Shown piece after piece: positions 1,402 through 64,000 of a stretch of DNA of 64,000 nucleotides (the stretch's first letter is position 1; each line of letters opens with the position of its first letter). The translations under genes were made by a program, and so were the position numbers. The notes beneath the pieces are model-generated. The model saw nothing but the letters and a program-made list of their open reading frames with translations, did not search any database and was not told the DNA's origin. Origin of the DNA: Candidatus Bathyarchaeota archaeon (GTDB taxonomy: Archaea > Thermoproteota > Bathyarchaeia > Bathyarchaeales > Bathycorpusculaceae); the NCBI GenBank assembly GCA_963827165.1, contig CAWGZR010000010.1, positions 288,001 through 352,000 on the forward strand, in the 5' to 3' direction.

Positions 1402-2280
1402 GTGCCTAAACCGCGCACACTACACTTGATCATCGTGCAGACACCCAAGTACCACATCTATATCGAGTATAGTGAGCCTGACAAGTCCGGCTTTCGCTTC
1501 AACGTTTCCCACGTAGAACTAATAGGAAAAATCCAAGAACCTTTCGCCAACTGCGAACCTTTCTGGTTTATGGGACGTCTCCTCAACCCAATCAAAGTTG
1601 CCAAAATCGTTATCTTTTGGTCCTACCTAACAGCTGACCAGCTGCATTTACCTAACAATGAAAGTCTCATAGCAGCTAAAGACAAAAAATACCTCATCGA
1701 CAACCTCCTCAAAGGAAAAGTTAAAGGCGTTTACCTATGCACCGAGGAATTTGTGGCCGTGACCCAAAAAAAATCGGCCCTATCCCCACAAGCTCAACCG
1801 GTAGTCTTCACTCCAAATGGCATACCACGGCGAATTGTCGTTGTTTCTGGAACAGATGAAATAATGAAGCAAACCATCACTGGAGCTTTGAGAAAACTCG
1901 GCCTCGCCGCCTTAATTATGAGTGAAGAACCCGGCCAAGGCAAAAAAATCGTCGACCGCTTCGCAGACTACACCGATGTGGACTTTGCTTTGGTGTTGCT
2001 TTCGCCTGACATTTACGTTTACCCTAAGGGAGAAGAAGCGACGAAACGCGAACGAATCCCAAAGCAAGATGTGACTTTAATGTTTGGCTTCCTATTAGGG
2101 AAACTTGGAAAGGATAAAGTACTTGCCTTCTATAGGGAAAGCCCAAACTTCGCCATTCCAATAGATTTCGAAGGCGTCAAATTCACAGCCCTAGACGACC
2201 GCGATAGTTGGAAACTTACCCTCATACGAGAACTCACCAACTGCGGCTATACGGTTGATGCTGAGAGACTTTTAAGGTAA
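1402..2280 (+). CDS. Unknown N-terminal domain + Cap12/Pycsar-type TIR domain (catalytic Glu absent)
   Basis: C-terminal half follows the family pattern (LGLAALIMSEEPGQGKKIVDRF..TDVDFALVLLSPD...GFLLGKLGKDKV...SWKLTLIREL). Confidence 0.8.
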   Translation: MPKPRTLHLIIVQTPKYHIYIEYSEPDKSGFRFNVSHVELIGKIQEPFANCEPFWFMGRLLNPIKVAKIVIFWSYLTADQLHLPNNESLIAAKDKKYLIDNLLKGKVKGVYLCTEEFVAVTQKKSALSPQAQPVVFTPNGIPRRIVVVSGTDEIMKQTITGALRKLGLAALIMSEEPGQGKKIVDRFADYTDVDFALVLLSPDIYVYPKGEEATKRERIPKQDVTLMFGFLLGKLGKDKVLAFYRESPNFAIPIDFEGVKFTALDDRDSWKLTLIRELTNCGYTVDAERLLR

Positions 2281-3276: not shown

Positions 3277-5874
3277 ATGGCGGATAACCAAGAGTTTCTG
3301 TCTTTGCCTGCTGACGATGTTTTAGCTAAGCTAAAGACGACTCAGTCTGGGCTGTCCTCGCAGGAAGTTCAAAGCCGCCTAGCAACCTATGGACCGAACG
3401 AGCTAGCCGAGAAGCAGAAACGCACGGGCCTCGTTGAAATCCTATACCACCTCCGAAACCCACTTGTCCTAATCCTGATTATTGCAGCTCTGATCTCTGG
3501 GGTTGTGGCGCATGACGTAAGCACCGCCGCCATAATCATCTTCATCGTTATGCTCAGCATATCCTTGGATGTATATCAAGAATCCAAGGCGGAAAACGCT
3601 GCTGAAGCGCTTAAAGAAAGAGTAACAACAAAAGCAACTGTTCTAAGAGACGGCACTAAACAGGAAGTGAAGGTTGCCGACGTTGTACCAGGAGATATAG
3701 TTTACCTAATCGCGGGGGACCTTGTTCCCGCAGATTGTCGATTAATAAGCGCCAAAGATTTGAATCTTAATCAGTCGGCTTTGACGGGTGAAGCGTTTCC
3801 AGTTGAAAAGAACGCCGCTCCACTTTCAACCGTTACTTCTGAGCTTACGGGCTGGAACAACTACGTTTTTTTGGGAACCTCAGTGGTTAGCGGAACTGGA
3901 ACAGCCGTTGTGGTTCAGACCGGAAGCCTAACCGAGTACGGTGGAATCGCTAAGGAGCTTGTGTCTAAAGCGCCTGAGACCGAGTTTGAGAAAGGACTAA
4001 GGCGATTCGGAGCCTTAATGACTGAGGTAACGCTTTTTTTGGTTGTTTTCGTGTTTTTCGTGAACGCGTTTTTCTATTCGGGTTCGCGCAGTATTTTGGA
4101 TTCTTTGCTTTTCGCTGTAGCCCTCGCAGTGGGGTTGACACCGGAGCTTTTGCCCATGATAATGTCGATTAACCTTTCCAGAGGCGCCGTGGCCATGTCT
4201 CAAAAAGGTGTTATTGTGAAACGGCTGGCGTCGATTCAAAACTTCGGCAACATGGATGTTTTATGCACGGACAAAACAGGCACGCTTACAGAAAACAAAC
4301 TCACATTAAATGCTTATGAGGATTTAGATGGGAAACAAGCTGAAAAAGTCCTAACGTACGGTTATTTCAACTGTGTATTTGAAGCAGGAATAAAAAGTTC
4401 TTTGGACGACGCCGTGCTCCAGTACAAGCAGTTTGACGTGTCGGGCATTAGCAAAATTGATGAAATACCGTTTGACTTTATTCGTAGGCGAGTTTCAGTA
4501 GTGGTCGAGTACCAGGGACAGAGATTTGTGATTTCAAAAGGGGCTCCCGAAGAAATCCTGAAGATCTGTGCCTACTGTGAAACTAATGAAGTCCTCACCG
4601 ACTTGGCAAATGTATGCCAAAGCCAGTTTGAGCAAAGATACAATGACCTCAGCGCCAAAGGATACAGGGTTTTAGCCGTCGCATACAAGAAAGTAGCTGC
4701 CGACAAAACACACTACACAATCACCGACGAAACCGACATGGTCTTTGTGGGTTTCCTCTCCTTCCTCGACCCGCCTAAAGAAAGCGCTAAGGAATCGATC
4801 GGTTTGCTGGCCCGAGATGGCGTGGAACTCAAAATAGTTACTGGAGATAACGAGTTAGTCACGAAAACAACTTGCGAACAATTGGGCTTCACCATTAAAG
4901 GAATCGTTCTAGGAAACCAAATTGCTCAACTACCCGACGATGCATTGGCGCGGGTTGTAGAGGACAACAACATTTTTGCCCGTGTGAATCCCGCCCAAAA
5001 AGACAGGGTCATCAAGGCTCTTCGTTCGAACGGGCACGTGGTGGGATATATGGGCGACGGCATCAACGACGCTCCATCCCTGAAAACAGCGGATGTAGGC
5101 ATCTCGGTGGAGAACGCCGTCGACGTTGCAAAAGAATCTGCTGACCTAATTTTGTTGCGACCCGACCTAACCGTGCTTGACCAGGGAGTTTTGGAAGGCC
5201 GCAAAACCTTCGGCAACACCATGAAATACATTATGATGGGTGTCAGCTCGAACTTTGGCACAATGTTCAGCGTCGCTGGAGCCTCTCTGTTTCTGAGTTT
5301 CCTACCCATGACGGCTATACAGATTCTATTAAACAATCTTCTCTATGACCTTTCCGAAGCTACAATACCCACAGACAACGTGGATGAAGAGTACATTGAG
5401 AAACCCAAGCGACTCGACATCTCATACATACGGAGGTTCATGGTGATCATGGGCCCAGTAAGCTCCATTTTCGACTTCGTAACCTTCTTTTTGCTGCTGG
5501 TAGTGTTCAAAGCTGCAGTTCCTGCGTTCCAAACCGCATGGTTCATCGAGTCTCTTGCAACACAAACATTTGTGGTTTTTGTGCTAAGAACCAGAAAGTC
5601 ACCATTTTATAAGAGCAAACCCGGCAAGTATCTGGTGATTAGCAGCTTATCCGTAATCGCCGTCGCTTTCATCATTCCATACACGCCTCTTAGCCAACTA
5701 TTCGGGTTCACGCCGCCTCCTACCATGTTCTACCTCGCCCTAATAGGACTAATAGCGGGCTACGTAATCCTTGTTGAAGGCGTCAAAAAATGGTTCATCA
5801 AACGCTACTCATACCTACTCGAACAAAGCTACGTTACAAAAAAAGTGAAGCCCAAAAGACAATCAGTAAGTTAA
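3277..5874 (+). CDS. mgtA: Mg2+-translocating P-type ATPase
   Basis: LTGE, PELLP, DKTGTLT, KGAPE, GDGINDAP, SSNFG, QILLNNLLYD motifs; likely start ATG 3277. Confidence 0.95.
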   Translation: MADNQEFLSLPADDVLAKLKTTQSGLSSQEVQSRLATYGPNELAEKQKRTGLVEILYHLRNPLVLILIIAALISGVVAHDVSTAAIIIFIVMLSISLDVYQESKAENAAEALKERVTTKATVLRDGTKQEVKVADVVPGDIVYLIAGDLVPADCRLISAKDLNLNQSALTGEAFPVEKNAAPLSTVTSELTGWNNYVFLGTSVVSGTGTAVVVQTGSLTEYGGIAKELVSKAPETEFEKGLRRFGALMTEVTLFLVVFVFFVNAFFYSGSRSILDSLLFAVALAVGLTPELLPMIMSINLSRGAVAMSQKGVIVKRLASIQNFGNMDVLCTDKTGTLTENKLTLNAYEDLDGKQAEKVLTYGYFNCVFEAGIKSSLDDAVLQYKQFDVSGISKIDEIPFDFIRRRVSVVVEYQGQRFVISKGAPEEILKICAYCETNEVLTDLANVCQSQFEQRYNDLSAKGYRVLAVAYKKVAADKTHYTITDETDMVFVGFLSFLDPPKESAKESIGLLARDGVELKIVTGDNELVTKTTCEQLGFTIKGIVLGNQIAQLPDDALARVVEDNNIFARVNPAQKDRVIKALRSNGHVVGYMGDGINDAPSLKTADVGISVENAVDVAKESADLILLRPDLTVLDQGVLEGRKTFGNTMKYIMMGVSSNFGTMFSVAGASLFLSFLPMTAIQILLNNLLYDLSEATIPTDNVDEEYIEKPKRLDISYIRRFMVIMGPVSSIFDFVTFFLLLVVFKAAVPAFQTAWFIESLATQTFVVFVLRTRKSPFYKSKPGKYLVISSLSVIAVAFIIPYTPLSQLFGFTPPPTMFYLALIGLIAGYVILVEGVKKWFIKRYSYLLEQSYVTKKVKPKRQSVS

Positions 5875-16445: not shown

Positions 16446-18170
16446 CTAGTACTTCCTCGCTTTAGGTTCAAAACGGGTAATAACCACGGGTTTGTATCTT
16501 GCCTCAAGCCCGCTGGCAGAGGAAAAAGCCATGGTGTGTTTTAGCCAGGCTCCGTCGTTACGACTTGGAAAATCGTTGCGGTAATGGGCACCGCGGCTTT
16601 CCTGTCTCTGCAACGCGGAGTAGACAATAACTTCAGAAAGCTTCAACATATTAGTTAACTCCAATGCGCCTTCGAGCTCAAAGTTGAAACGTTTGCCACT
16701 ATAGCTTAACCCAACATGTGCCATCCTGCCTTGAAGCTCGCGAATTTTACCCTGCGCCTGCTCCAAACCCACCTTGTCACGGAAAACGCTGCATAACTGG
16801 GTCATGGTTCTCTGCATTTCTGCACGAATTATTGCCACACGTTCCTTTCCAGCTGAAGCCAACAGCGAATCGATTTTTGAAGAAACCATTTTCTCGGCGG
16901 CTGCGTCGAGCGGGACTTGCTGGTTCCCGGAAACATAATTCACGATATGTAAGCCTGCTCTTTTTCCGAAGACCACCAGATCAACCAGCGAGTTTGTCCC
17001 AAGCCTGTTTGCTCCATGAACGCTTACACAGGCACATTCGCCCGCTGCATACAAGCTAGGCACAATAATGGATTTCTCATCTGCAAGTACGCGCGCCTGG
17101 GCGTCGGTAGGCACGCCGCCCATCATATAGTGGCATGTTGGCGCAACGGGAATCAATGATTCACTTGCGTCTATGCCGAGGTAATTCTTAACAAATGACG
17201 TGACTTCCGAAAGTTTTTCCTGCAACTGGTCCTTTCCTAGGTGCGTTAAATCCAAGTAAACATAGTCCGACCCATCTACGCCTCTGCCCTGGGCAACCTC
17301 AGTTAAAATTGCTCTGGAAATTATGTCTCTGGGCGCCAAGTCCTTGAGCGTGGGAGCGTAACGCTCCATAAACCGTTCACCCTTGCCGTTCCGCAACACG
17401 CCGCCTTCAGCCCTTGCCGCCTCGCTGACCAATATGCCTAATCCATGTATGCCTGTTGGGTGAAACTGGACGAACTCCATATCTTCAAGAGGAACTCCGG
17501 CGTCAAAAGCCAAAGAGAAACCATCTCCTGTGGCAGCGAAAGACATCGAAGTCGTTTGGAAGATTCTACCGCAGCCGCCGGAAGCAAGCAAAACCGCTTT
17601 CGCATGGAAAACCATCGGCTCACCCGTCGCTAACTCGTACCCAGAAACGCCGCAGATTTGTCCCTCAGATTTTAAGAGCGACGTGACGAAGACTTCATTG
17701 AATATTTTTACGCCTCGAACCATGCAGTGATCGTAGAGGGTATCCATTATTACCCGTCCCGTCCTATCAGAGGCGTAGCAAGCCCGTTTGACAGGGGCTT
17801 CGCCAAAATTTTTCGTGTGACCGCCGAACCGTCTCTGCTCAATCGTTCCTTTATCATTGCGGCTGAAAGGGACGCCAAGATGTTCCAACTCAATCACGCG
17901 TTCCGGTGCCTCCCGAGCCAAAATTTCAGCTATATCCTGATCTGCCAAATAGTCGCTGCCCTTCACCGTGTCGAACATGTGCCATTCCCAGCGGTCTTCC
18001 TCCTCGTTTCCAAGAGCCGCCGCGATCCCCCCCTGGGCAGAGCCGCTGTGACTGCGGGAAGCGTACACCTTGCTGATTACAGCGATGTTGCACGTTTCAG
18101 AAGCAGTTAAGGCAGCAGTTAACCCCGCGATGCCTCCGCCAACGATTACGACGTCAAACTCGTGAATCAT
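16446..18170 (-). CDS. sdhA: Succinate dehydrogenase/fumarate reductase flavoprotein
   Basis: [11 protein letters not shown] (covalent FAD His), [29 protein letters not shown]. Confidence 0.96.
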
Positions 18171-19453
18171 GTTTTTCCAGCCTTTTCATCGAGAACTAGG
18201 ATTTCCCTGCCAATATCTTCAAGGGAATCGCAGCAGGTCATAGCCATTGCCATGCGCAAATCGCTCTTAACGTAGTTGAGGTACATTGCTACGGCTTCGG
18301 GTCCGCCTGCAAGGCTCATCCACGCAAGCGGTCTGCCTATCAAAGCTACATCCGCGCCTAACGCCAGGATTTTCAAAACGTCAAAACCTGTTCTCACCGC
18401 GCCATCAGCCATAATTGTAATTTTTCTTTTGAACTCGTCCACGATTTCGGGAAGGACTTCTGCTACGCCTTTTCCGCAGTCCATTACTCGGCCTCCGTGA
18501 TTGCTGACGTCTAGCGCTTTTGCACCCGAATCGACAACTTTGCCCGCATCCTCTGCATTCATGATTCCCTTGTAGATTACGGGTTTTTCTGTAGAATCGA
18601 CCAGTTCTTTGAGATCGCCCTCGCTTTTGCGGTAAAGCGGCTTGCCCCTCAGCGCCCAATTAGTGGAGCCGTATCCGTCCAAATCAACCCCGATAGCCAC
18701 GACGTCGGCTTGTTCACACCGCTTAAACAGGGTCAAAAGACGATCTTGAGATTGAGGCTTGAAAACAGGAATGCCCCAACCGCCGAGTCGGCCGATAACA
18801 TCTATGCCCGGATGGTCTGGCGCGTCGACTGTGTTGCCGCTTAACCCGACGGTACCTGCTAGCTTAGCGCCTTCAACCATGCCACGCTGGAATTCCTCCT
18901 CGCTCAAGGCGCCATTCATACTAATCAATGTCCCGCTGAAACTTGACGCCAAAACGGGTAAAACAATTTTGTTTCCCAGAAAATTTGTTTCAAAGTTTGG
19001 CTCGAGATGGTCTTTGATGACACGCATTTTCAGCTTATATCGGGATAGGGCTTGGAAGTTTGCGGTCCATGTTTTGCCTTGCCCAGCGCCACCGAACCCG
19101 ATTGGTTTGCCGTACTTCATGCCCTGGCAGAGTCTGTCAGGGTCTCCGTCACACACCTTGTTTACAGCACAGATTCTTGAAAGCTGCTTTCTGGCGATGT
19201 CTCGGTAGTACGTGATGTCTTTTGAGGGTTTTTCATTGGGCGGTGGGAAGTTTCTTTCGTAATTTGCCCTTACTTGAACATATTGTTGTTCGCTGATTTC
19301 TTTGAGGTTCCCTTTCCAATGACCGCAGACAGGGCAGCGCCAAGCGTTTGAAATTTCCGCAAGGTTCGAACCCGGCGGCAACTCCGCTCCTACGTCGCCT
19401 TTTTCCACGTCAAACGTAAAGCTACGGCAAAACCCACACACAAACTTCAACAA
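18167..19453 (-). CDS. Rubredoxin domain fused to FMN-dependent alpha-hydroxy-acid oxidase/dehydrogenase
   Basis: N-terminal CGFC...WRCPVCG; core [27 protein letters not shown]. Confidence 0.9.
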
Positions 19454-25226: not shown

Positions 25227-25365
25227 GCGCCAACTGGCAAGTTGTCAATATCTGTTCAGTTGAGTTCAAGCGCCAATTCGGATTCCAAAAGATTTATCTT
25301 TAAACCTAAACAGACTATTAGTTAATTGCCAAGTCCTGAGCAGTTTTTTGCGCGAGCCGTTTTAT

Positions 25366-26325
25366 ATGAGCCAAAATAACACTAGAAAAATCAGTCCTGA
25401 AGATCTAAAGCTGTTCGATGGGTCAAACGGGAGACCTCTTTATCTTGTTTTCAAGGGCAAAGTCTACGATTTATCGACAAGCCAACTTTGGCTTGAAGGC
25501 AAACACATGGGCATGCACACCCGAACCGACGACTTAGCCGAAGCGATAAAAACCGCGCCTCACGGCGAAGACAACGTTTTCAGATTTCCCGTTATTGGCG
25601 AATTGTTAGAACCCACCCTTCAAGCTCCTGCAGCAGCCCCGATGATGGAGAAACCCTTGGAAGCGAAGGTTCAGCCATCGCCTGTTCCAGCTCAGCCAGC
25701 GAGGATGGAGAGGCGCACTTTTCTCAAGCTGGCGGCCGCGGCGGGTGGAGCAATCACGATTGCGGCTTTGTTGTCTACCCTAAAAGCAGGAACTTTCGTT
25801 CCGCCTCCAAGCTCAACTGCAGAGTGGCCAGTCGTCACTGTCACAAACATAAGCAAACTTTCAAACCTCACACCAGTCGTCTTCTACTACCCCTTAACAA
25901 GCACCCCTAACTATCTTGTCAAATTAGGAGTTGCAGCCACGGGCGGCATTGGGCCAGAAAAGGACATTGTGGCTTTCAGCGCAATTTGCCAGCATTTAGG
26001 ATGCGAATATGGCTTCGTACCTCCGGGAGGCTCACCGCCCTGCAACGCAGCTTACAAGGCTTCAATGCCTATGGGCTACTGCTGCTGTCACGGCTCTCAA
26101 TACGATTTCATCCATGGCGCAAAAGTAATCGGCGGTCCCGCTCCCCGACCAGTGCCCATGGTTCAATTGCAGCTAAACTCATCCACGGGGGACATAAGCG
26201 CGGTTGGGATGCAGGCACCTACGATTTTTGGGCATGGCCCGCCTGGAACCACTGATCCCGCGTCGGTTATGCAGTATGATTTGCAGGGTGGAGATTTGGT
26301 GACGCAATCCACAGTTTTGGGATGA
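25366..26325 (+). CDS. Cytochrome b5-like domain + internal Tat anchor + Rieske [2Fe-2S] protein
   Basis: KGKVYD..W.EGKHMGMH..APHG (b5-like); MERRTFLK + hydrophobic helix; CQHLGC and CCCHGSQYD boxes; GPAPRP. Confidence 0.9.
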   Translation: MSQNNTRKISPEDLKLFDGSNGRPLYLVFKGKVYDLSTSQLWLEGKHMGMHTRTDDLAEAIKTAPHGEDNVFRFPVIGELLEPTLQAPAAAPMMEKPLEAKVQPSPVPAQPARMERRTFLKLAAAAGGAITIAALLSTLKAGTFVPPPSSTAEWPVVTVTNISKLSNLTPVVFYYPLTSTPNYLVKLGVAATGGIGPEKDIVAFSAICQHLGCEYGFVPPGGSPPCNAAYKASMPMGYCCCHGSQYDFIHGAKVIGGPAPRPVPMVQLQLNSSTGDISAVGMQAPTIFGHGPPGTTDPASVMQYDLQGGDLVTQSTVLG

Positions 26326-27857
26326 GAGATATGGGCGAAGAAACTGAGAAGAAGACGGCTTATGACAGGCTTGTCGACTGGTTTGACGTGAAATTCGGTT
26401 TTGCCAAGACACCGCTTAAGCCGATTCCAGATTTCACGATGAACCCGATTTACTGGCTTGGTTTACTCTTGGCGGTGACTTTCGGGTTGCAGGCCCTAAC
26501 AGGAATATTTATGCTTCTCTACTACGTCCCCACACCCGCCCAAGCATACTCTTCAACAGCATCCATCATCAGCTCTGTGCCTCTTGGCTCACTCGTCGAA
26601 ACCTTTCACCTATACACCGCCTATGCCATGATTCTTTTGACGTTTCTTCATTTAGTTCGCAACTTTTTCGGCAGCGCGCATAAAGGAAACAGGGACTTGA
26701 TGTGGCTTGTCGGAATCGTATTGGCCACGGTGGTAATCGGCTTCGGCGTGACAGGCTACCTTTTACCGTGGACAGTGATTTCCAAATCTGCAAGCGACGT
26801 CGCCATCGGATTCCTCAACTTCTTCCCCGTTGGCATAGCGAACCTTGGAAAATTCGTGGCAGTAGGCTCAGGAAGCGACGCCTCGGAATTAACGACTTTT
26901 CTACATATCCACACCGTTTTTCTTCCGTTGGCGCTGATTGCGCTTTTGGGATTGAAGATTTACATGTACGAAGTGCATGGCCCAATCTACGTGTCAGCAT
27001 ATGGGAAACCTGGAAAAGGCAAATACTATAGTTGGTTCCCAAAAATCTTCCTCTACTTCGTCATGCTTGCAGCTGCGTATGTTGCGATTTTGCTGGCGGC
27101 AGCGTCTCTTTTCCCTCTATCTTTAGCCCCCGCGTATTCAGCCGCAACCGCAGGCGCATACGTAGTGCAGCCCGATTGGTACCTGCTTTGGGTTTATCAA
27201 CTATTGAAAATCCAGCTTTTCGAAGGCTCCGCAGCAGCTTACGTGATAGCCGCGTTGATTGCTTTCGGAGTGATTCTTTTCCTCATGCCTTTTTACGATA
27301 GGAGCAAACGAAGAAACCTCAGCCAACGACCAGTTTACTCCACCATTGGTGCTGTTCTGATAATTGAGCTTATCACTTTGACTATATGGGGATACTTAAC
27401 ACCTGGGCAAATAATTCCAGACTATCAAGCACTCGCAGTTTTAGGCGGAGCAGCCGTGGTAACCATCGCCGCCGTCTGGGCGGTTTATCGGCTTAGACGA
27501 AAAACAAACATGGCAACAGTGATACCTGTGCAAACGAAAACCAACTCTTCCGCCGCCAACATATCCATAGCAAGCCAGTCCTTTGCAGTGCAAGCCTCCG
27601 ACGAGATGGCTCGGACAAAGAAGGAGCAAATCAAACGCGCCGGCGAAAGCCTGTTTAGCCCATTCACCGCTGTCTTCGCGGTTTTCTTGGCGGTTGCTTC
27701 GGTTTCTTTGGCATCAGCCGTAAACATGCTGCCCACCATTTCAGCGAATGCATCTTTTTTCACCTTAGCTTTAATGGCTTTCGCAGTTTCGTCTTTTTTC
27801 ATGATTCGAATGCTTCGAAAGTTTGTTTTAGCGTATGAAGGAGCGGTGGCCAAATGA
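26322..27857 (+). CDS. Cytochrome b of a Rieske/cytb complex (unsplit, extra C-terminal helices)
   Basis: Q..TG...YYVP, H96/H110, TGYLLPW, H197, PDWY Qo motif, PFYDRS; ATGA overlap with the Rieske gene. Confidence 0.93.
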   Translation: MRDMGEETEKKTAYDRLVDWFDVKFGFAKTPLKPIPDFTMNPIYWLGLLLAVTFGLQALTGIFMLLYYVPTPAQAYSSTASIISSVPLGSLVETFHLYTAYAMILLTFLHLVRNFFGSAHKGNRDLMWLVGIVLATVVIGFGVTGYLLPWTVISKSASDVAIGFLNFFPVGIANLGKFVAVGSGSDASELTTFLHIHTVFLPLALIALLGLKIYMYEVHGPIYVSAYGKPGKGKYYSWFPKIFLYFVMLAAAYVAILLAAASLFPLSLAPAYSAATAGAYVVQPDWYLLWVYQLLKIQLFEGSAAAYVIAALIAFGVILFLMPFYDRSKRRNLSQRPVYSTIGAVLIIELITLTIWGYLTPGQIIPDYQALAVLGGAAVVTIAAVWAVYRLRRKTNMATVIPVQTKTNSSAANISIASQSFAVQASDEMARTKKEQIKRAGESLFSPFTAVFAVFLAVASVSLASAVNMLPTISANASFFTLALMAFAVSSFFMIRMLRKFVLAYEGAVAK

Positions 27858-28510
27858 TGAAGAGCGACTTTGATTCCTTACGGGTTACTACGTATTTCCT
27901 TTTGGCTTTTCTAGTCGTGGTCGGAGTTTCTATTTGGCTTCTGAATCTGATAAGCCAGCAAAGAGTCTTCGGTTTCTTGATGAGCGCCGAATTCGTCGCG
28001 TTCGCTATGCTCGTCTACCTTTACTACATGGAGGACCCAGCAGTCGCTAAGAAACTGTTGACCTCAGGGTTTGTTGCCATAGGAATTCTTGTTATTTTAT
28101 CTGGTGCCGTATTAGCCGGAGTCGGTACCCCTGTGGCGCTGCCTAAGCCCAACGTTTCGATGACCCTCTATGCTGGGGAGGTTTCTCCTACGTTGTTTGG
28201 GTTCGGGAACAGCGCAACCGCCATAACTTCGCCGGGTCCAATCCTTAACTTCACGGTGGGCGATGTCGTGAACATGACGATTTTTAACGCGGGAACAATG
28301 CCGCATAACTGGGCGATAGTCGACTCCGACAGCACTTCAGGCAAAGTTTTGTTCGGCGCAAAAATCGACAGCGGCTTAGTTCCTATACCTGTCAATGAAA
28401 CAGCATCGGTTGCTTTCAGAGTCACCAAAGCAGGGGACTACTTCTACATTTGTCAAGTTCCAGGGCACGTCCAGCTTGGCATGTGGGGAAGCGTGGTAGT
28501 GAATCCGTGA
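27854..28510 (+). CDS. Membrane-anchored type-1 copper cupredoxin (sulfocyanin/rusticyanin-like)
   Basis: Three N-terminal TM helices; MPHNW...YICQVPGHVQLGM copper ligands. Confidence 0.88.
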   Translation: MMKSDFDSLRVTTYFLLAFLVVVGVSIWLLNLISQQRVFGFLMSAEFVAFAMLVYLYYMEDPAVAKKLLTSGFVAIGILVILSGAVLAGVGTPVALPKPNVSMTLYAGEVSPTLFGFGNSATAITSPGPILNFTVGDVVNMTIFNAGTMPHNWAIVDSDSTSGKVLFGAKIDSGLVPIPVNETASVAFRVTKAGDYFYICQVPGHVQLGMWGSVVVNP

Positions 28511-29283
28511 TACGCAAAAACGCAGAAGAACTCTTCGTTTCATTTATGTTTTTGTTTGCAAGTTTACTCACGGGTCTAATGAGCTTCTTGGCATTTGGCT
28601 TTGTAATTGCAAAGCAAAAAGCCGAAAGAAAAAGGGAACCCCAAAAAGCTGTTGGTTTTCTTGCAGACAAGAATAGAGCGCTGAATTTTTACAGAATATT
28701 TTCTGTAGCCTACGACACTTTGAATCCGTCCCTGTACACCGTTGCCATGCGAAGCGAAATGGTAAATCAAATCGGAAACGGCGCGAACCTGCGAGTGCTT
28801 GACGTTGGATGCGGAACAGGCTACACGACCTCAGGAGTTTTGAGGCGAGGAGACATTGCGGAAGTGGTTGGGTTGGATATGAACCCTGTGCAGCTTAAAA
28901 GAGCCGTCAAGAACCTGCGCTTCGAAATGGACAGGGCTTCGATTTCAAGAGGCGACGCGGACAACCTGCCGTTTGAAGACGGCACTTTTGACGCCGTAAT
29001 TTCGGTCGGCGCCATCGAGTATTTTCCTGACCCCGAAAGAACAATAAAGGAGCTTTCAAGAGTCGCAAAGCCCGGTGGAACCGTTATTGTTGGTGGTCCC
29101 GAAGCAGGATGGTTCAGCAAGCTTGCGTTAAACAAGGTTTTTTATACGCCTTCTGCACAAGAAATGGAGACTTTTTTTCGCAAAGCTGACCTCGCCAATG
29201 TGAAATCGCGCTTGACAGGGATGAAAACTTTTTTCGCAACAAACAGATATGTTGTTTTTGCCGTTGGAAAGAAACCAGCATAG
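28507..29283 (+). CDS. UbiE/MenG-like SAM methyltransferase (start uncertain: GTG 28507 or ATG 28546)
   Basis: VLDVGCGTG, GDADNLPF, GAIEYFPDP, RVAKPGG; FYRIFSVAYD resembles the VTE3/haloarchaeal MenG type; N-terminal TM helix. Confidence 0.8.
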   Translation: MIRKNAEELFVSFMFLFASLLTGLMSFLAFGFVIAKQKAERKREPQKAVGFLADKNRALNFYRIFSVAYDTLNPSLYTVAMRSEMVNQIGNGANLRVLDVGCGTGYTTSGVLRRGDIAEVVGLDMNPVQLKRAVKNLRFEMDRASISRGDADNLPFEDGTFDAVISVGAIEYFPDPERTIKELSRVAKPGGTVIVGGPEAGWFSKLALNKVFYTPSAQEMETFFRKADLANVKSRLTGMKTFFATNRYVVFAVGKKPA

Positions 29284-29300: not shown

Positions 29301-30332
29301 TTAAGCTCTTTTCCGCGAGGCGAGTAGAGCCCAGGCTACAGGGGCATATGCGGCTGCTAGCAATGACAATATGAAAGCAAGTTGCAACATGTTAGCCGCA
29401 TTTAAGAAGCCTGCAATTGCGTACCCTGCGATTAAGCCGAAGCTGGTGACGCTATGTGCAAGTATCATGTCAAGGTTGGCTGGAGCCATCAGCCGTGGAT
29501 TGTCCTTGTGAGCCCGAACGACAGAGATGGAGTGAATAACAAGCGGGATGGATAGCAAAGCGGCAAGCGTGTAGAGCGGTATGAATCTGAGCAAAGCGGA
29601 AACGGCGATTACAGCGTATGTGCATATCCAACTTGCTATGTACAGTTTGACTCCAGCGTCTTTACCATATCTTGCGACAAGCGTAAGTTTCCCAGCCGCT
29701 CTATCCTCCAAAATATCAGGAATCTCATTAATCACAATCATAGAGAACAACATTATCCCCAGAGGTAACGTCGCCAAAAACGCCTGCAACGTCACCGTTT
29801 GCGCCTCAACATAAAAAGCGCCTAAACCGATAACTGACCCAAAATTCACTAACATCACAATCTCGCCTAGTCCGTGGTGACCAAAACTAATGGGCGGAGC
29901 CGTGTAGAACACGGCGCAGAACACGCCCAATAACCCGAAGGCCAAGATAGGCAAACCTCGGGTTAAGGTAAGATAGAACCCGGCGGCCAAAGTTATCAGG
30001 TAGCAGAGCGTAAAAGCCTTAAACATACTTTTAGGCGCTAAAAGCCCACTGCTAAGAGTAGCGCTACCGCCGGAATATGGGTTCTTCTCGCCCGGCGCAA
30101 GCTTGTCAACGCTGTGCTTGTAATCGTAGTAGTCGTCGGTCATGTTTAAGGCGATATGATTGATTATGATAGCGACTAGCACGAGAAGAAAGTAAAACGG
30201 AATAAAACCTCTGTTAGTTGCCCAACTGACTAAACCCCCAAGGACCGCGGGGAAGATGCTTGGAGGCACAAAATGGTAGCGGAAGGCTTGCCACCACACT
30301 TTTGCTTTACTTGCTTTTAACGTACTAGTCAT
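29301..30332 (-). CDS. menA: 1,4-dihydroxy-2-naphthoate prenyltransferase (UbiA family)
   Basis: NMTDDYYDY..VD, PYSGGS, YTAPP, NEIPD..EDRAAGKLTL. Confidence 0.85.
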   Translation of the reverse strand: MTSTLKASKAKVWWQAFRYHFVPPSIFPAVLGGLVSWATNRGFIPFYFLLVLVAIIINHIALNMTDDYYDYKHSVDKLAPGEKNPYSGGSATLSSGLLAPKSMFKAFTLCYLITLAAGFYLTLTRGLPILAFGLLGVFCAVFYTAPPISFGHHGLGEIVMLVNFGSVIGLGAFYVEAQTVTLQAFLATLPLGIMLFSMIVINEIPDILEDRAAGKLTLVARYGKDAGVKLYIASWICTYAVIAVSALLRFIPLYTLAALLSIPLVIHSISVVRAHKDNPRLMAPANLDMILAHSVTSFGLIAGYAIAGFLNAANMLQLAFILSLLAAAYAPVAWALLASRKRA

Positions 30333-45441: not shown

Positions 45442-46463
45442 TATGGGTGTGCAGAATTTAAGTTGCTTCCCAATTATGTTTTAGTATGGAAGCCTGTGAT
45501 GTTGTCAGGCTTTTCGTCAACAAAGCAATAGTTTCTGCAGAACCAAAACGACGGGGAAATCCAGGATACGGACGCCTAAGAGCACTCAGAGTTCTCGTAT
45601 ACGCTAGACTTAAAGGATTAGAGAACGACACCCGCATAGTTGAACATCTAAAGAAGCATTCATACGCTGCTATAACCCTTGGGTTGTGCAAAGTGCCTGA
45701 TAGAACCACTGTTGGAAGATGGTGGAGACGCTATCTCAGCCTACTTGAAGAGACTTTTGGAAAAATATCAAGCATGCTTCAGCTCATGTCGCCAACCACT
45801 TTTCTAATTGTTGATTCAACACCGCTAGTGGATCTCTACGATATGGAAGCCGGCTGGGGTCACACAAGCAGAGGAAAATTCAGAGGCTTCAAACTTCATG
45901 CAGCCGTAAACCAGTTAGGATTGCCGCTAAGAGCAGTCGTCACGCCGGGGAACCGTTATGATTCGCCGTTTCTTCCCAAGCTGATTGCAGATTTGGAGGC
46001 AGATTACGTTTTAGCTGACGCGGGCTACGACTCGAAGACAAACTACCGAGCCGTCAAGGACATTGATGTTGAGCCGGTTATTGCTTCTAACCCTAGACGA
46101 GGGAAACGCAAGAAGATCAAGCATGCCCAGCTGTTGAAGACTAGGCGTTATGTGGTTGAGCAGTTTAACGGGCACATTAAAGCTAACGTTTTGAAGCAAT
46201 GCTGGATAAGGCCAAGGGGTTTGGTGAAGAAAGCGGCGATGGTTATGGCTGCCTTGATAAGTTTTGATGCAGAAGCAATGAAATCTTTGGTTCTTGGCGA
46301 AGAAAGTCTAAAGCACGTGAGCAAGTACTGGGCTTGATCCAATACTCTAAAGGTTATGGAGCCTGTGAGACACCAACCGATGGCATTTCAGGATTCCAGC
46401 CCAGACCTGCTCATTAGATTAGTAGTTAACAAAACTATAAAAAACGAATTGTGCACAGGTCTA
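45442..46463 (+). mobile_element. Insertion sequence of 1022 bp (IS5/IS982-like DDE) with 17-bp imperfect TIRs and 7-bp TSD
   Basis: Left end TATGGGTGTGCAGAATT, right end AATTGTGCACAGGTCTA; AATGATC repeated at 45435-41 and 46464-70. Confidence 0.85.
45486..46337 (+). CDS. DDE transposase (DDE_Tnp_1-like)
   Basis: IVDST, GFKLH, LADAGYD, RYVVEQFN. Confidence 0.93.
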   Translation: MEACDVVRLFVNKAIVSAEPKRRGNPGYGRLRALRVLVYARLKGLENDTRIVEHLKKHSYAAITLGLCKVPDRTTVGRWWRRYLSLLEETFGKISSMLQLMSPTTFLIVDSTPLVDLYDMEAGWGHTSRGKFRGFKLHAAVNQLGLPLRAVVTPGNRYDSPFLPKLIADLEADYVLADAGYDSKTNYRAVKDIDVEPVIASNPRRGKRKKIKHAQLLKTRRYVVEQFNGHIKANVLKQCWIRPRGLVKKAAMVMAALISFDAEAMKSLVLGEESLKHVSKYWA

Positions 46464-61084: not shown

Positions 61085-62515
61085 TTAGACTTTTCCTTTT
61101 AGGAGCAGCCAAGCGTTGTCTTCTTTAGCGTTTTTAAGCCGCACCAAAATGTAGCGACCCTTCATCTTTTGCCCGTTGAGGGTGACTTCGATTTTTTCTT
61201 TTTCCCAAAGTTTAGGTTCAAAATAGCCTTTGTCCCATATTTGGACTGTTCCAGCGCCATATTGCCCTTTGGGAATTGTGCCTTCGAAGCGCGCGTAATC
61301 GTAAGGGTGGTCTTCAGTCTGCACCGCCAGACGACGTTCACCGCTGATCATTGGGATGCCTTTGGGTACAGCCCAGCTCTTCAGAACTCCGCCGCTTTCC
61401 AGCCTTAGGTCATAATGGAGTGCTCTTGCATGATGTTCCTGGACAACGAAAATTAGTTTCCCTTCTTCTTTTTTCTCGTCACCTGTCGGCTCAGGTGTCT
61501 CTTCAAAATGACGTTTTGCCGAATACTCAGAAAGTTTTTCGTCGGATGCTGCGCATTTTGTGTTTTCCGTTATTTGGTCAAGCGAGCATTGTTTGGGGTC
61601 TTTATCCTCTCTTAAACTTTTGAAACGTGGCATTCTTAACCTCATCTCTCTTGTCACACATTGATAGATGACTTCGCACACAAAATGAGGCTCAAGCCAA
61701 GTCACCCTATCCGCCATTTCAACTGCAAACGGAGCAGCGGAAACGGTTTTGAGTTTTTCAAACTTATCTATCAACTCTTTAAGCATATCATCGCTGAACC
61801 CAGTTCCGACGTTACCTACATAAACTGGTTTACCATCTGCGCCATAGAGACCGAGTACCAAAGAGCCGAAGGTTTTTTCTCTGGATTTTTCTCCTCGTCG
61901 GTAACCAAAAACAACGCAGTCACAGGTTTTCAGCTCCTTGATTTTTAGCCAACTTCCGGTTCGCAAGCCTTCCTCGTATTGGCTATCTTTTCTCTTCGCC
62001 ATTACACCTTCCAAACCTTTGTCCACAACCAGTCGGAAGTAGGCTTCCCCTTTTTCCTCGATGAAGTCAGACAACAAAACGTTTCTTCCTTCGACGAGAG
62101 ATTCCTGCAAGATTTTTTTGCGTTCCAAAAGCGGCAACTTCGTGAGAGGTTTCCCGTCTTTCTCAATCACGTCAAAAACGATGTAAGTTGCTGGTTCCTG
62201 TTCCTGTCGCCGCTCGATTTCTTTCTGTGAAACTGCTTTGCCGCGCTCCAGCAACGCTTGGAAGTCGGGTTTTCCCTCATGCATCACCACGATTTCGCCG
62301 TCAACCACTAGGTTCCTACCTAAATGTGTGAGTTCTTCGAGTTCAGGAAAGTTGTATTTTAGTTCCTTTTCGTTACGACTCTTCACACTTAAGCTTTGGT
62401 TGATGTAGCTGATGGCTCGAAACCCGTCCCATTTTATTTCGAAAACCCAATCTTTATCTGAGAAGGCGCCCGGGGCGTCTTTTGCAAGCATTGGCCGGTA
62501 GACGTGGCCGCTCAT
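61085..62515 (-). CDS. ligD: NHEJ ATP-dependent DNA ligase fused to C-terminal 3'-phosphoesterase (LigD-type LIG-PE)
   Basis: EIKWDGFR, DGEIV, FDV, EGVMAK, WLKIK; PE: Y.AKR.F.ETPEP, QEHHARALHYDLRLE, SWAVPKG, EDHP. Confidence 0.93.
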   Translation of the reverse strand: MSGHVYRPMLAKDAPGAFSDKDWVFEIKWDGFRAISYINQSLSVKSRNEKELKYNFPELEELTHLGRNLVVDGEIVVMHEGKPDFQALLERGKAVSQKEIERRQEQEPATYIVFDVIEKDGKPLTKLPLLERKKILQESLVEGRNVLLSDFIEEKGEAYFRLVVDKGLEGVMAKRKDSQYEEGLRTGSWLKIKELKTCDCVVFGYRRGEKSREKTFGSLVLGLYGADGKPVYVGNVGTGFSDDMLKELIDKFEKLKTVSAAPFAVEMADRVTWLEPHFVCEVIYQCVTREMRLRMPRFKSLREDKDPKQCSLDQITENTKCAASDEKLSEYSAKRHFEETPEPTGDEKKEEGKLIFVVQEHHARALHYDLRLESGGVLKSWAVPKGIPMISGERRLAVQTEDHPYDYARFEGTIPKGQYGAGTVQIWDKGYFEPKLWEKEKIEVTLNGQKMKGRYILVRLKNAKEDNAWLLLKGKV

Positions 62516-63373
62516 TTCTTTTCCAGCTGCTTAACCGTCTCACGCAATGCAACCATCAAGCTTTTAGCTTCGACTTCCTGAGGCTTTTCGATATGGATTT
62601 TTTCGCCTTTCACTTTCTGGGCGATTAATTCTTCAATCCGTTTCATGTATGAGTCCTGGAACTCTGCGATGTTGAATTCGCCTGAGAGTTCACTTACGAT
62701 TTTTATCGCCATGTCTAATTCTGCTTTTTCGGGTTCCTTAAGCTTATGAAGGTCCTCGAAGTCCTTGGGATCAACAACATCGTAGGCATAACGGAGTGTT
62801 GTGATTACGAGCGCGCCCTGGTAGGCGTGGAGCAGAGCAGGGGTATTCTTTTGTCCGCAGAGTTATTCGTCCCGCGCCAGCCTTGTTTTTCTTTTCGAGC
62901 GCCCGCAAAAGAAGCGTGTAGGCTTCTTTGCTTTTCTTTGGCAGAAGAGCATAGCTTTTGTCGAAGTAGATTGGGTCAACTGAGAAGTAGTCTACGAATT
63001 TGCTGATTCGGATTCGGTTGTCTGATTCGGGTTTAGCTGCGTCTAATTCGGCTTTGTCAAGGGTTATCCACTCATCTTTAGAGACCTCGTAGCCTCGGAT
63101 AACCTCGTTCCAGGGGACAATTTTGTCGTCTTTCGTGCACATTTTAACGTATTTGAGGGGTTGACCATCGGTTTTATGGAGAAAATGAAACGCTATGCCT
63201 TTGTCGTATATCATCGAGTATAACTGAACAGGAACGTTAACCAAACCAATTGTTATGCTGCCCGACCAGATGGATCTTCTCGGAGCCGCAGCGCTGACTT
63301 TCCCAATTGATTTCTCATCCATTTCAGAAGTGGCTTCATCAACATCATCTTTTTCTTGATTTTCCTGTGCCAT
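62512..63373 (-). CDS. ku: NHEJ protein Ku, one +1 frameshift in the G4 run at 62840-62843
   Basis: RSIWSGSITIGLVNVPV, DPIYFDKSY; removing one base gives TKEYPALLHAYQGALVITTLRY...AELDMAIKIV, joining ORF 62512..62712. Confidence 0.92.
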
Positions 63374-63375
63374 AC

Positions 63376-64000
63376 CTAAATCTCCAGATTACACTTTTTC
63401 TCAAAAATATTTTTCCACGGATCTTCTTTCCGTTTGACTACATTAAAAATATTGTAGTCGGAGGGGTTTATGCCTTTCTTAACTTCGCTCCATTCCAAAG
63501 GCGTCGAAACCGTGGCTTCAGGTGTCGGTCGCAGACTGTAAGGAACAACCATCGTACGCATAGGTGAATTCTGTAGGTAATCAGCGAAAACTTTGCCTGG
63601 TTTTTTTGTGTCTTTGAATTCGGAAACTACTATCTCGTTTTCCCTGGCCAATTCGATTCCGATTTCGTGGACGAAAGCCCTTGCTTCCTTGAAGTCATGT
63701 TCGGGAACAATCGGGATGACGACATGGAGCCCTTTTTTGCCTGAGGTTTTTACGAATGGCGTTAGCCCTAAGTCAATAAGTTTGTCTTTGAGCTGCAGCG
63801 AAACCTCCGCTGCGTCGCTAAGAGTTGCCGGGGGCTCGGGGTCAACGTCGAAAAACAGCATATCAGGCTTATCTAAATCATCGATCATCGAGAAAGGCAT
63901 ATGAATTTCCAGTGTCGCTAAGTTTGCGAGCCAGATTAACGTGTCTAAATCGTTGCATACAATGTAGTGAACATCTCGTTTCGACGCTGAAGAGTAAATG
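63376..64000 (-). CDS. NHEJ primase-polymerase (LigD PolDom), 5' end outside window
   Basis: LIWLANLATLEIH, FFDVDP, KTSGKKGLH, VFADYLQN, PYSLRP, VSTPLEW. Confidence 0.93.
   Translation of the reverse strand, partial: IYSSASKRDVHYIVCNDLDTLIWLANLATLEIHMPFSMIDDLDKPDMLFFDVDPEPPATLSDAAEVSLQLKDKLIDLGLTPFVKTSGKKGLHVVIPIVPEHDFKEARAFVHEIGIELARENEIVVSEFKDTKKPGKVFADYLQNSPMRTMVVPYSLRPTPEATVSTPLEWSEVKKGINPSDYNIFNVVKRKEDPWKNIFEKKCNLEI

Follow-up and report, generated by a model that had tools for sequence, protein, structure and literature searches.

The window analyzed here, a 64,000-nucleotide stretch of contig CAWGZR010000010.1 from the Candidatus Bathyarchaeota archaeon assembly GCA_963827165.1, encodes at positions 25366..26325 (+) a single protein of 319 amino acids in which a predicted heme domain of the cytb5M type and a Rieske iron-sulfur domain are joined with no stop codon between them. 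The protein is built in four parts, a heme domain (residues 8-82), a linker (83-113), an internal twin-arginine translocation (Tat) signal-anchor (114-141) and a Rieske domain (150-310), which lie in the window as follows (pLDDT being the per-residue confidence of the structure model described below):

25366..26325, + strand: whole gene, cytb5M - linker - Tat signal-anchor - Rieske 2Fe-2S; 319 amino acids, stop codon included
25387..25611, + strand: predicted cytb5M (MAPR-like cytochrome b5) heme domain, residues 8-82; from phmmer against the PDB and conserved ligands
25612..25704, + strand: Pro/Ala-rich, putatively flexible linker, residues 83-113 (31 residues); low identity and low pLDDT
25705..25788, + strand: internal twin-arginine signal, presumably an uncleaved membrane anchor, residues 114-141; TIGR01409 and an invariant RR
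25813..26295, + strand: Rieske 2Fe-2S domain, residues 150-310; PF00355 above its cut-off

The first in-frame start codon is a TTG at 25348 (frame 25348..26325); because homologues begin with MSQ, which fits the ATG at 25366, the latter was taken as the start. A word-indexed search returned 550 relatives, and the figures given here come from its best 120 clusters, 116 of which cover at least 91% of the query. Their first member, cluster P0001, is 99% identical to the window protein and is named 'Rieske 2Fe-2S domain-containing protein [Candidatus Bathyarchaeia archaeon]' at NCBI, and the Joint Genome Institute (JGI) labels most homologues 'arsenite oxidase small subunit'. Conservation was scored over 115 sequences, the query plus 114 homologues of 300-335 amino acids from these clusters, after the N-terminally shortened P0014, P0053, P0058 and P0105 and the longer gene calls P0069 and P0100 had been dropped.

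Structurally, a phmmer search of the PDB (177,635 sequences) aligned residues 7-80 without gaps to two cytb5M proteins, 6VZ6 from Methanococcoides burtonii (E 2.6e-15) and 6NZX from a Hadesarchaeon (E 1.8e-14), at ~50% identity over 72-74 ungapped residues, and both of these solved proteins are heme-bound. In 6VZ6, the heme is buried and held non-covalently by the bis-His ligands H42 and H61 with a hydrogen bond from S34, and in 6NZX the heme is additionally touched by H46 and K68 (10.1101/2021.11.30.470528). These residues map, respectively, to H47 (25504-25506) and H66 (25561-25563), which are the predicted axial ligands of the window protein, and to S39, H51 and R73 as its other heme contacts, so that the His pair and the heme contacts are the same in all three proteins. 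The two histidines fall within GKHMGMH (residues 45-51) and APHG (residues 64-67). S39, W42, H47, H51 and H66 are each kept in all 115 full-length sequences, and R73, which was counted in the 36-sequence alignment A1, is invariant there. Since all heme-contact residues of 6VZ6 and 6NZX are conserved, heme binding by the domain is likely. The domain also lacks the characteristic tyrosines of MAPR proteins, and the ungapped match to 78-residue cytb5M chains leaves no room for their MIHIR insert. The initial annotation had described a b5-like domain with conserved histidines; the motifs and histidines are present, and by sequence the domain belongs to the cytb5M/MAPR-like subclass rather than to the classical HPGG cytochromes b5. 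Unlike the solved cytb5M proteins, which are free-standing chains, the domain here forms the N-terminus of a membrane respiratory subunit.

Between the heme domain and the signal, the sequence is poorly conserved, mean identity to the query being 31% in the linker versus 64% for the heme domain and 76% each for the signal-anchor and the Rieske domain, while His66 and Arg116 are always 42-51 residues apart (mode 48) in the 114 of 115 sequences in which the two motifs could be located. Residues 84-122 are unstructured (pLDDT below 50) in an AlphaFold2 model of the window protein built on 36 sequences. Because the linker drifts in sequence while its length and the flanking domains stay conserved, it looks, in a sequence comparison, as expected of a flexible tether whose length is selected and which joins two domains under purifying selection, in agreement with the tether first proposed for it.

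The Pro/Ala linker, the MERRTFLK motif and the hydrophobic helix follow one another as had been claimed: MERRTFLK starts at residue 114, whose ATG lies at 25705, the twin arginines R116-R117 are encoded at 25711-25716, and the modeled helix spans residues 116-141. The NCBIfam Tat model TIGR01409 scores 21.4 bits, above its cut-off of 16.7, and the Pfam TAT_signal model scores 18.7 (cut-off 22.7). R116, R117, F119 and K121 are invariant in A1, and both arginines are found in 115/115 sequences. Computed on the 99% identical P0001, the sole hydrophobic maximum lies at residue 127, the N-terminus is hydrophilic and free of an N-terminal signal, and the 14 residues leading into the helix include four K/R and a single D/E (+3), with no charge (0) in the 15 residues after it. 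According to the available part of PMC13673990, ordinary Rieske proteins belong to class III of the Tat substrates and those of streptomycetes to class IV, with Tat signals that serve as uncleaved anchors, and class V substrates carry a folded domain on the cis side ahead of an internal uncleaved signal, for which FecR is the experimental precedent. The order seen in the window protein (folded domain, internal RR signal-anchor, folded domain) is that of class V. Given the single helix, the charge bias, the lack of an N-terminal signal and the FecR precedent, a topology with the N-terminus in and the Rieske domain out is reasonable, and the earlier placement of the heme domain inside and the iron-sulfur domain outside the cell is thus plausible by sequence and analogy, with the signal presumably retained as the anchor. 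FecR shares with the window protein, as predicted, the cytoplasmic folded N-domain, the internal uncleaved RR signal-anchor and the exported folded C-domain, but it is a signaling protein without redox cofactors, whereas here cofactor domains are predicted on both sides of the membrane. Actinobacterial QcrA (class IV) likewise is a Rieske protein with its Tat signal away from the N-terminus, but two Sec-inserted helices precede that signal (same source, available in part), in place of the soluble heme domain found here. At one fused locus (L015, 9154-10549), TatA and TatC genes directly follow the Rieske, cytochrome b and cupredoxin genes and are themselves followed by a second cupredoxin gene.

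The Rieske domain is recognized by PF00355 at 22.5 bits, just above the cut-off of 20.3, and is modeled with confidence (pLDDT 83-97), and its closest solved relatives are SoxF (1JM1, E 4.3e-20) and AioB. Both cluster-binding motifs (C-x-H-x-G-C and C-x-C-H) are complete, box I being CQHLGC at residues 208-213 (25987-26004) and box II CCCHGSQY at residues 239-246 (26080-26103), where Cys240 replaces the usual Pro. C208, C213, C226, C239, C240, C241 and H242 occur in 115/115 sequences, and H210 and S244 in 114/115 each; that the extra invariant pair C226 and C240 forms a second disulfide is speculation. The reading of Ser244 and Tyr246 as determinants of a high potential, made in the initial annotation, draws on mutagenesis of bc1 complexes. 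The substitution of Cys for Pro in box II, which had been singled out from the window sequence, is thus present and invariant, but it is not peculiar to the fused protein. CCCH is a trait of the family: all 120 best database clusters have it, as do 8 of the 42 representatives with a recognizable box II, and it is carried by Nitrososphaerota, Thermoplasmata and other Bathyarchaeia whose Rieske genes are unfused.

The fusion is not confined to the window. Named organisms among the best 120 clusters are all 'Candidatus Bathyarchaeia archaeon' except for one 'Limnocylindrales' record. In an exhaustive search at 50% clustering, only P0121 among the best 150 representatives spans both domains, so that the fused family is essentially one 50% cluster, with the fusion retained in sequences down to 55% identity. 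A scan of one genome per species, based on two peptide patterns (GYCCCHGS or a second), yielded 94 relatives, the best 80 of which were compared: loci L001-L020 match (nearly) residues 1-319, L021-L080 match the Rieske part only, and a heme-domain profile matches 21 open reading frames (ORFs), confined to exactly those 20 loci. Heme and Rieske domains are in frame in 19 of these 20 species-level Bathyarchaeia loci; the exception is L019, where a frameshift in a run of A within the linker splits the two halves and looks like an assembly error. The initial annotation had read the locus as a genuine fusion, to be given up if homologues were always two separate genes, and its homologues are in fact fused. 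Around the 60 unfused loci, no separate heme-domain ORF was detected within ~6 kb on each side (60/60 loci, E <= 1e-3). Source names of the fused loci point to peat, Danish soils and permafrost.

Evolutionarily, the 21 fused sequences form one clade (support 98/91) in a maximum-likelihood tree of 81 Rieske domains, nested under midpoint rooting among unfused Bathyarchaeia and Nitrososphaerota genes, and a single change accounts for the distribution, which argues at the sequence level that the fusion arose once. None of the 20 fused genomes recurs among the 60 unfused loci, within the best 80 of 94 relatives, two peptide patterns and incomplete metagenome-assembled genomes that this comparison covers, and the fused gene therefore seems to be the only Rieske protein of this family in its genomes. 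One fused locus, L010 (DATHCJ010000061.1), is labeled Candidatus Limnocylindrales (Chloroflexota); its Rieske sequence falls within the Bathyarchaeia clade, its PrpD gene shares 81% identity with that of the window, and the contig is probably mis-binned. Another, L017, carries a truncated paralogue (3759-4301, with a counterpart in P0277) upstream of the full fused gene. This paralogue keeps the heme domain and linker, has its hydrophobic segments duplicated and its RR motif eroded to TR, and lacks the Rieske domain; it may be a membrane-anchored cytb5M in its own right or a duplicate in decay.

Downstream of the fused gene in the window lie the following genes:

26322..27857, + strand: cytochrome b, SoxC-like, 511 amino acids; PF00033 1.3e-26, PF00032 1.1e-11
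27854..28510, + strand: membrane-anchored type-1 copper protein (cupredoxin); PF00127 1.8e-7, rusticyanin and sulfocyanin models weak
28450..29283, + strand: UbiE/MenG-like S-adenosylmethionine-dependent methyltransferase; Methyltransf_11 2.7e-25, TIGR01934 (MenG_MenH_UbiE) 65 bits, below cut-off
29301..30332, - strand: MenA-like prenyltransferase (menaquinone biosynthesis); UbiA 4.8e-22

The start of cytochrome b overlaps the Rieske stop codon (ATGA), and a cytochrome b gene sits directly 3' of the Rieske gene in 20/20 fused and 59/60 unfused loci. The cupredoxin gene, whose product probably accepts electrons from the Rieske center, comes next in 19 of 20 fused loci (the contig of L014 ends earlier), and by tblastn the methyltransferase comes after it in 15 of 20; the true start of the methyltransferase is probably later than the TTG at 28450. 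Among NCBIfam models, the prenyltransferase is matched best by those for 1,4-dihydroxy-2-naphthoate polyprenyltransferases (148.7 bits, below cut-offs), and a polyprenyl synthetase gene lies just upstream in the fused loci L007, L012, L015 and L020. The wider window is archaeal, encoding ribosomal proteins L31e and S19e and the RNase P subunit Rpr2, and is rich in genes of the tricarboxylic acid cycle and respiration (citrate synthase, SdhA/B, SucC/D, polyprenyl synthetase); it holds no second heme-domain or Rieske gene in its 64 kb.

This gene set resembles that of Sulfolobus SoxF/SoxL, with which the window protein shares the long insert between the cluster-binding boxes, GS.Y in box II, an adjoining SoxC-like cytochrome b and a blue copper protein as partner. 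It differs from SoxF, which has a short N-terminus before its signal, no heme domain and CPCH instead of CCCH in box II, and NCBIfam models for SoxL2 and SoxC score far below their cut-offs on the window proteins (192.5 bits for NF041076 SoxC on cytochrome b). The AioB label likewise reflects a Rieske fold with a Tat signal and a partial match to TIGR02694, but that match reaches 78.7 against a cut-off of 95.65 and the neighbors are cytochrome b and a cupredoxin rather than the molybdenum subunit AioA, and the label is misleading. From its sequence and neighbors, we take the protein to be the Rieske subunit of a quinol:cupredoxin oxidoreductase ('complex III') of soil and peat Bathyarchaeia, and its fusion to a heme domain to be a variant of the known Rieske/cytochrome b complex.

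What would the heme domain add to such a complex? Bis-His ligation, fusions of cytb5M to redox enzymes and other N-terminal modules within the Rieske family are the three observations that led us to regard it as a redox module. Among cytb5M proteins, P0285 carries the domain fused to a glutamate-synthase/FMN-type enzyme, and of 32 proteins scanned 13 tether it to a DUF2231 membrane domain and 10 contain tandem repeats of up to six copies (for example, P0125, P0127 and P0137). A single cytb5M stands ahead of DUF2231 in P0188, P0214 and others, and DUF2231 is not supported as a clear dihaem partner, having only two invariant histidines, which lie near each other where its first helix begins. Among Rieske proteins with a CCCH-type box, P0284 (685 amino acids, Nitrososphaerota) begins with a DsrK/HdrD-like cytoplasmic iron-sulfur domain (321.5 bits against NF045796, cut-off 400) and P0131 (434 amino acids) with a NarI/DsrM-like dihaem membrane domain, in both cases followed by RR and a helix and then the Rieske domain. 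A search among longer proteins for larger fusions, for example to cytochrome b, returned only P0284 and P0285, which is weak evidence on that question. The heme domain, linker and RR signal recur in P0163 (224 amino acids) ahead of an unrelated C-terminal part of ~95 residues without a Pfam match, and the unit of cytb5M plus Tat signal may be modular.

Functionally, we posit that the heme domain serves as an electron port on the inner (N) side of the complex that exchanges electrons with cytochrome b at heme bH and the Qi site, a reading that we favor tentatively and with somewhat less than even confidence. Following sequence logic and the FecR precedent, cytb5M would fold with heme b in the cytoplasm and remain there, the twin-arginine helix would be inserted as an uncleaved anchor while Tat export would bring the folded Rieske domain to the outer face, and the ~31-residue linker would let the heme domain swing across the N face of the dimer, where single electrons could pass between it and heme bH or the quinone at Qi. 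Of the two directions, we lean toward entry, in which flavo- or iron-sulfur enzymes of the cytoplasm would feed electrons to the quinone pool; exit, with bH drained by an acceptor in the cytoplasm, is less likely. The further step, that the port joins soluble redox enzymes to bH/Qi and makes the complex a quinone reductase on the inside as well as a quinol oxidase on the outside, or in reverse passes electrons of the low-potential branch to the cytoplasm, is possible and rather doubtful.

One hint of a docking site comes from cytochrome b, where the N-side loop after helix D (residues 216-245; window 26967-27056) is Lys-rich in the fused clade, with a net charge of +2 to +4 in 18/18 sequences versus -3 to 0 in 15/15 unfused ones, including the nearest sisters L021, L023 and L029; helix boundaries are approximate, being taken from an alignment to b6/bc1. 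The heme domain, for its part, is acidic on average. A C-terminal extension specific to the cytochromes b of the fused clade was considered and ruled out, as unfused cytochromes b are similar, mostly ~460-530 amino acids. Separately, K212 of cytochrome b (window 26955-26957) aligns with the second helix-D His of cytochrome b6 (7r0w_I), which we take to be the ligand of heme bn/bH. This Lys is found in 33/33 archaeal cytochromes b, fused and unfused and including one from Nitrosopumilales, and is followed by an invariant E-x-H-G (E217, H219, G220), so the N-side heme of the whole archaeal family may be unusually ligated, by Lys or by His219.

To our knowledge, all characterized Rieske/cytochrome b complexes carry electrons from membrane quinol to an outer-side carrier. 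For cytochrome b6f, soluble carriers that feed or drain the inner side have been debated for decades, and the entry proposed here would by analogy be a hard-wired counterpart of the stromal (ferredoxin/FNR) input suggested for that complex. The likeness to heme cn of b6f, where an extra N-side heme links soluble reductants and Qi (available part of 10.1101/2020.08.22.262592), is one of concept only: heme cn is covalently bound inside cytochrome b6 by heme bn, whereas here the heme would sit in a Rieske-tethered domain with no sequence relationship. No published description of a heme-Rieske fusion was found in the accessible literature on Bathyarchaeia respiration, cytb5M and Rieske proteins (most subscription journals and supplements lie outside it), nor a paper describing a bc complex of this architecture, as the initial annotation had stated. 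The preprint on cytb5M structures mentions no Rieske fusion (10.1101/2021.11.30.470528), the one on MAPR origins uses the word 'Rieske' 0 times, although its appendix lists of cytb5M could include fused forms (10.1101/2021.11.17.468889), and in the available part of PMC11697101 Rieske and cytochrome b5 of Bathyarchaeia appear as separate small cytoplasmic proteins.

The heme domain may, then, give the complex an extra inner-side electron contact, through a putative heme carrier fixed to its inner face with ligands intact across a clade of abundant soil and peat archaea. At 85 residues, the heme domain offers a simple, expressible handle on the inner-side electron question. If the port is real, the window protein together with the DsrK- and DsrM-like fusions would suggest that archaeal Rieske proteins carry N-side redox modules more widely, a habit so far undescribed. 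The fusion would also add a redox enzyme to a very short list of Tat substrates with a folded domain before the signal, and it bears on how the formerly anaerobic Bathyarchaeia wired themselves for respiration. Even if the heme domain has nothing to do with cytochrome b, an annotation is corrected, as the label 'arsenite oxidase small subunit' is widespread and wrong.

Several observations weigh against an N-side port. The Pfam Cyt-b5 model (PF00173) stays below its gathering threshold on the window protein (16.4 bits, E 0.0096, cut-off 23.7); several close homologues, including P0122 and P0129, do carry PF00173, and this general model fits the cytb5M subclass poorly. The modeled heme domain is of moderate quality (pLDDT 49-83 per ten-residue block), with the heme loop at residues 45-51 below 50, as expected of a model built without heme. 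The charge of the heme domain is not uniformly acidic (mean net charge -1.8, range -6 to +3), the contrast in loop charge amounts to one evolutionary event and may be plain phylogenetic signal, and the N-side segments of cytochrome b show no other clade-specific excess of fixed changes. No obvious reductase of the heme domain appears as a conserved neighbor. Unfused relatives run the same operon without such a domain, which makes it dispensable for core turnover. Electron transfer, heme binding and topology are read here from sequences and models.

The main rival to the port, rather unlikely in our judgment, is that the Rieske helix is a mere anchor and the tethered cytb5M serves other enzymes near the membrane, such as oxygenases, desaturases or dehydrogenases, instead of cytochrome b, much as the tail-anchored cytochrome b5 of eukaryotes does. 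It draws on the frequent attachment of cytb5M to unrelated membrane domains (DUF2231 in the 13/32 mentioned above), on the Rieske-less paralogue of L017 and P0277, which keeps its heme domain, and on P0163, where the same domain, linker and RR signal precede a different C-terminal part. On the other hand, fusion to an essential respiratory subunit sets a 1:1 stoichiometry that is kept down to 55% identity, the length of the linker is conserved, the basic N-side loop is peculiar to the cytochrome b of the fused clade, and no candidate client enzyme is found as a conserved neighbor.

A decidedly smaller chance is given to a heme-dependent sensor, regulator or assembly aid, which would report heme or redox state, pass heme to cytochrome b, or hold the precursor until Fe-S insertion. 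The domain stands ahead of a Tat signal, a position where chaperone-like control is known for other substrates, and unfused complexes work without a heme domain. MAPR relatives also have non-redox roles (10.1101/2021.11.30.470528). Yet the bis-His six-coordination of 6VZ6 and 6NZX is typical of electron carriers and not of ligand-binding sensors, and cytb5M is elsewhere fused to redox enzymes and is wire-like in tandem.

It is improbable that signal cleavage or an internal start at 25705 leaves the cell with an ordinary Rieske protein beside a separate cytb5M, either membrane-anchored or soluble. In favor of this, the window protein and 77 of 115 sequences have Met at position 114, and split forms occur in databases (L019, and P0271 with P0105 on one contig). 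In the other 38, however, residue 114 is Ile (18), Leu (18), Val (1) or Ala (1), so that a b5-less isoform started from this ATG, as the initial annotation had suggested, does not hold as a general feature; the split of L019 is a frameshift in the A-run of the linker, typical of assembly errors, short relatives number only 16, mostly on short contigs or out of frame, and Rieske Tat signals are uncleaved anchors (PMC13673990, available part).

Very improbable, likewise, is a heme domain outside the cell that replaces cytochrome c1 between the Rieske center and the cupredoxin. These archaeal operons lack a c1-type subunit, and Sulfolobus does use an external b-type cytochrome, CbsA. Against this stand the missing signal peptide before the domain, the single hydrophobic segment, the positive charges on the domain side, and the sister operons that have the same cupredoxin arrangement without fusion or heme domain; the Tat loop mechanism, moreover, leaves the N-terminus on the cis side, as the FecR precedent illustrates (PMC13673990, available part). 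Finally, an artefact of assembly or gene calling that joined two neighboring genes, in favor of which only weak Pfam scores speak, is refuted by the full length of 116 of the best 120 clusters, the in-frame fusion at 19 of 20 loci, which come from independent genomes and different studies, and the absence of a stop between the domains in the window.

Elsewhere in the window, the gene at 18167-19453 (-) joins a rubredoxin domain to an FMN-dependent 2-hydroxyacid (LldD-like) dehydrogenase, as does one in L020 (3289-4587, -), the most distant locus of the fused clade, and in both places the gene adjoins SdhAB. This fusion is a counterpart of flavocytochrome b2 in which rubredoxin replaces the b5 heme. 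The window further encodes a protein with a CAP12/Pycsar-type TIR effector domain at 1402-2280 (+), a DDE transposase at 45486-46337 (+), and an end-joining set of Ku and LigD (ligase, phosphoesterase, primase-polymerase) at 61085-63900 (-).

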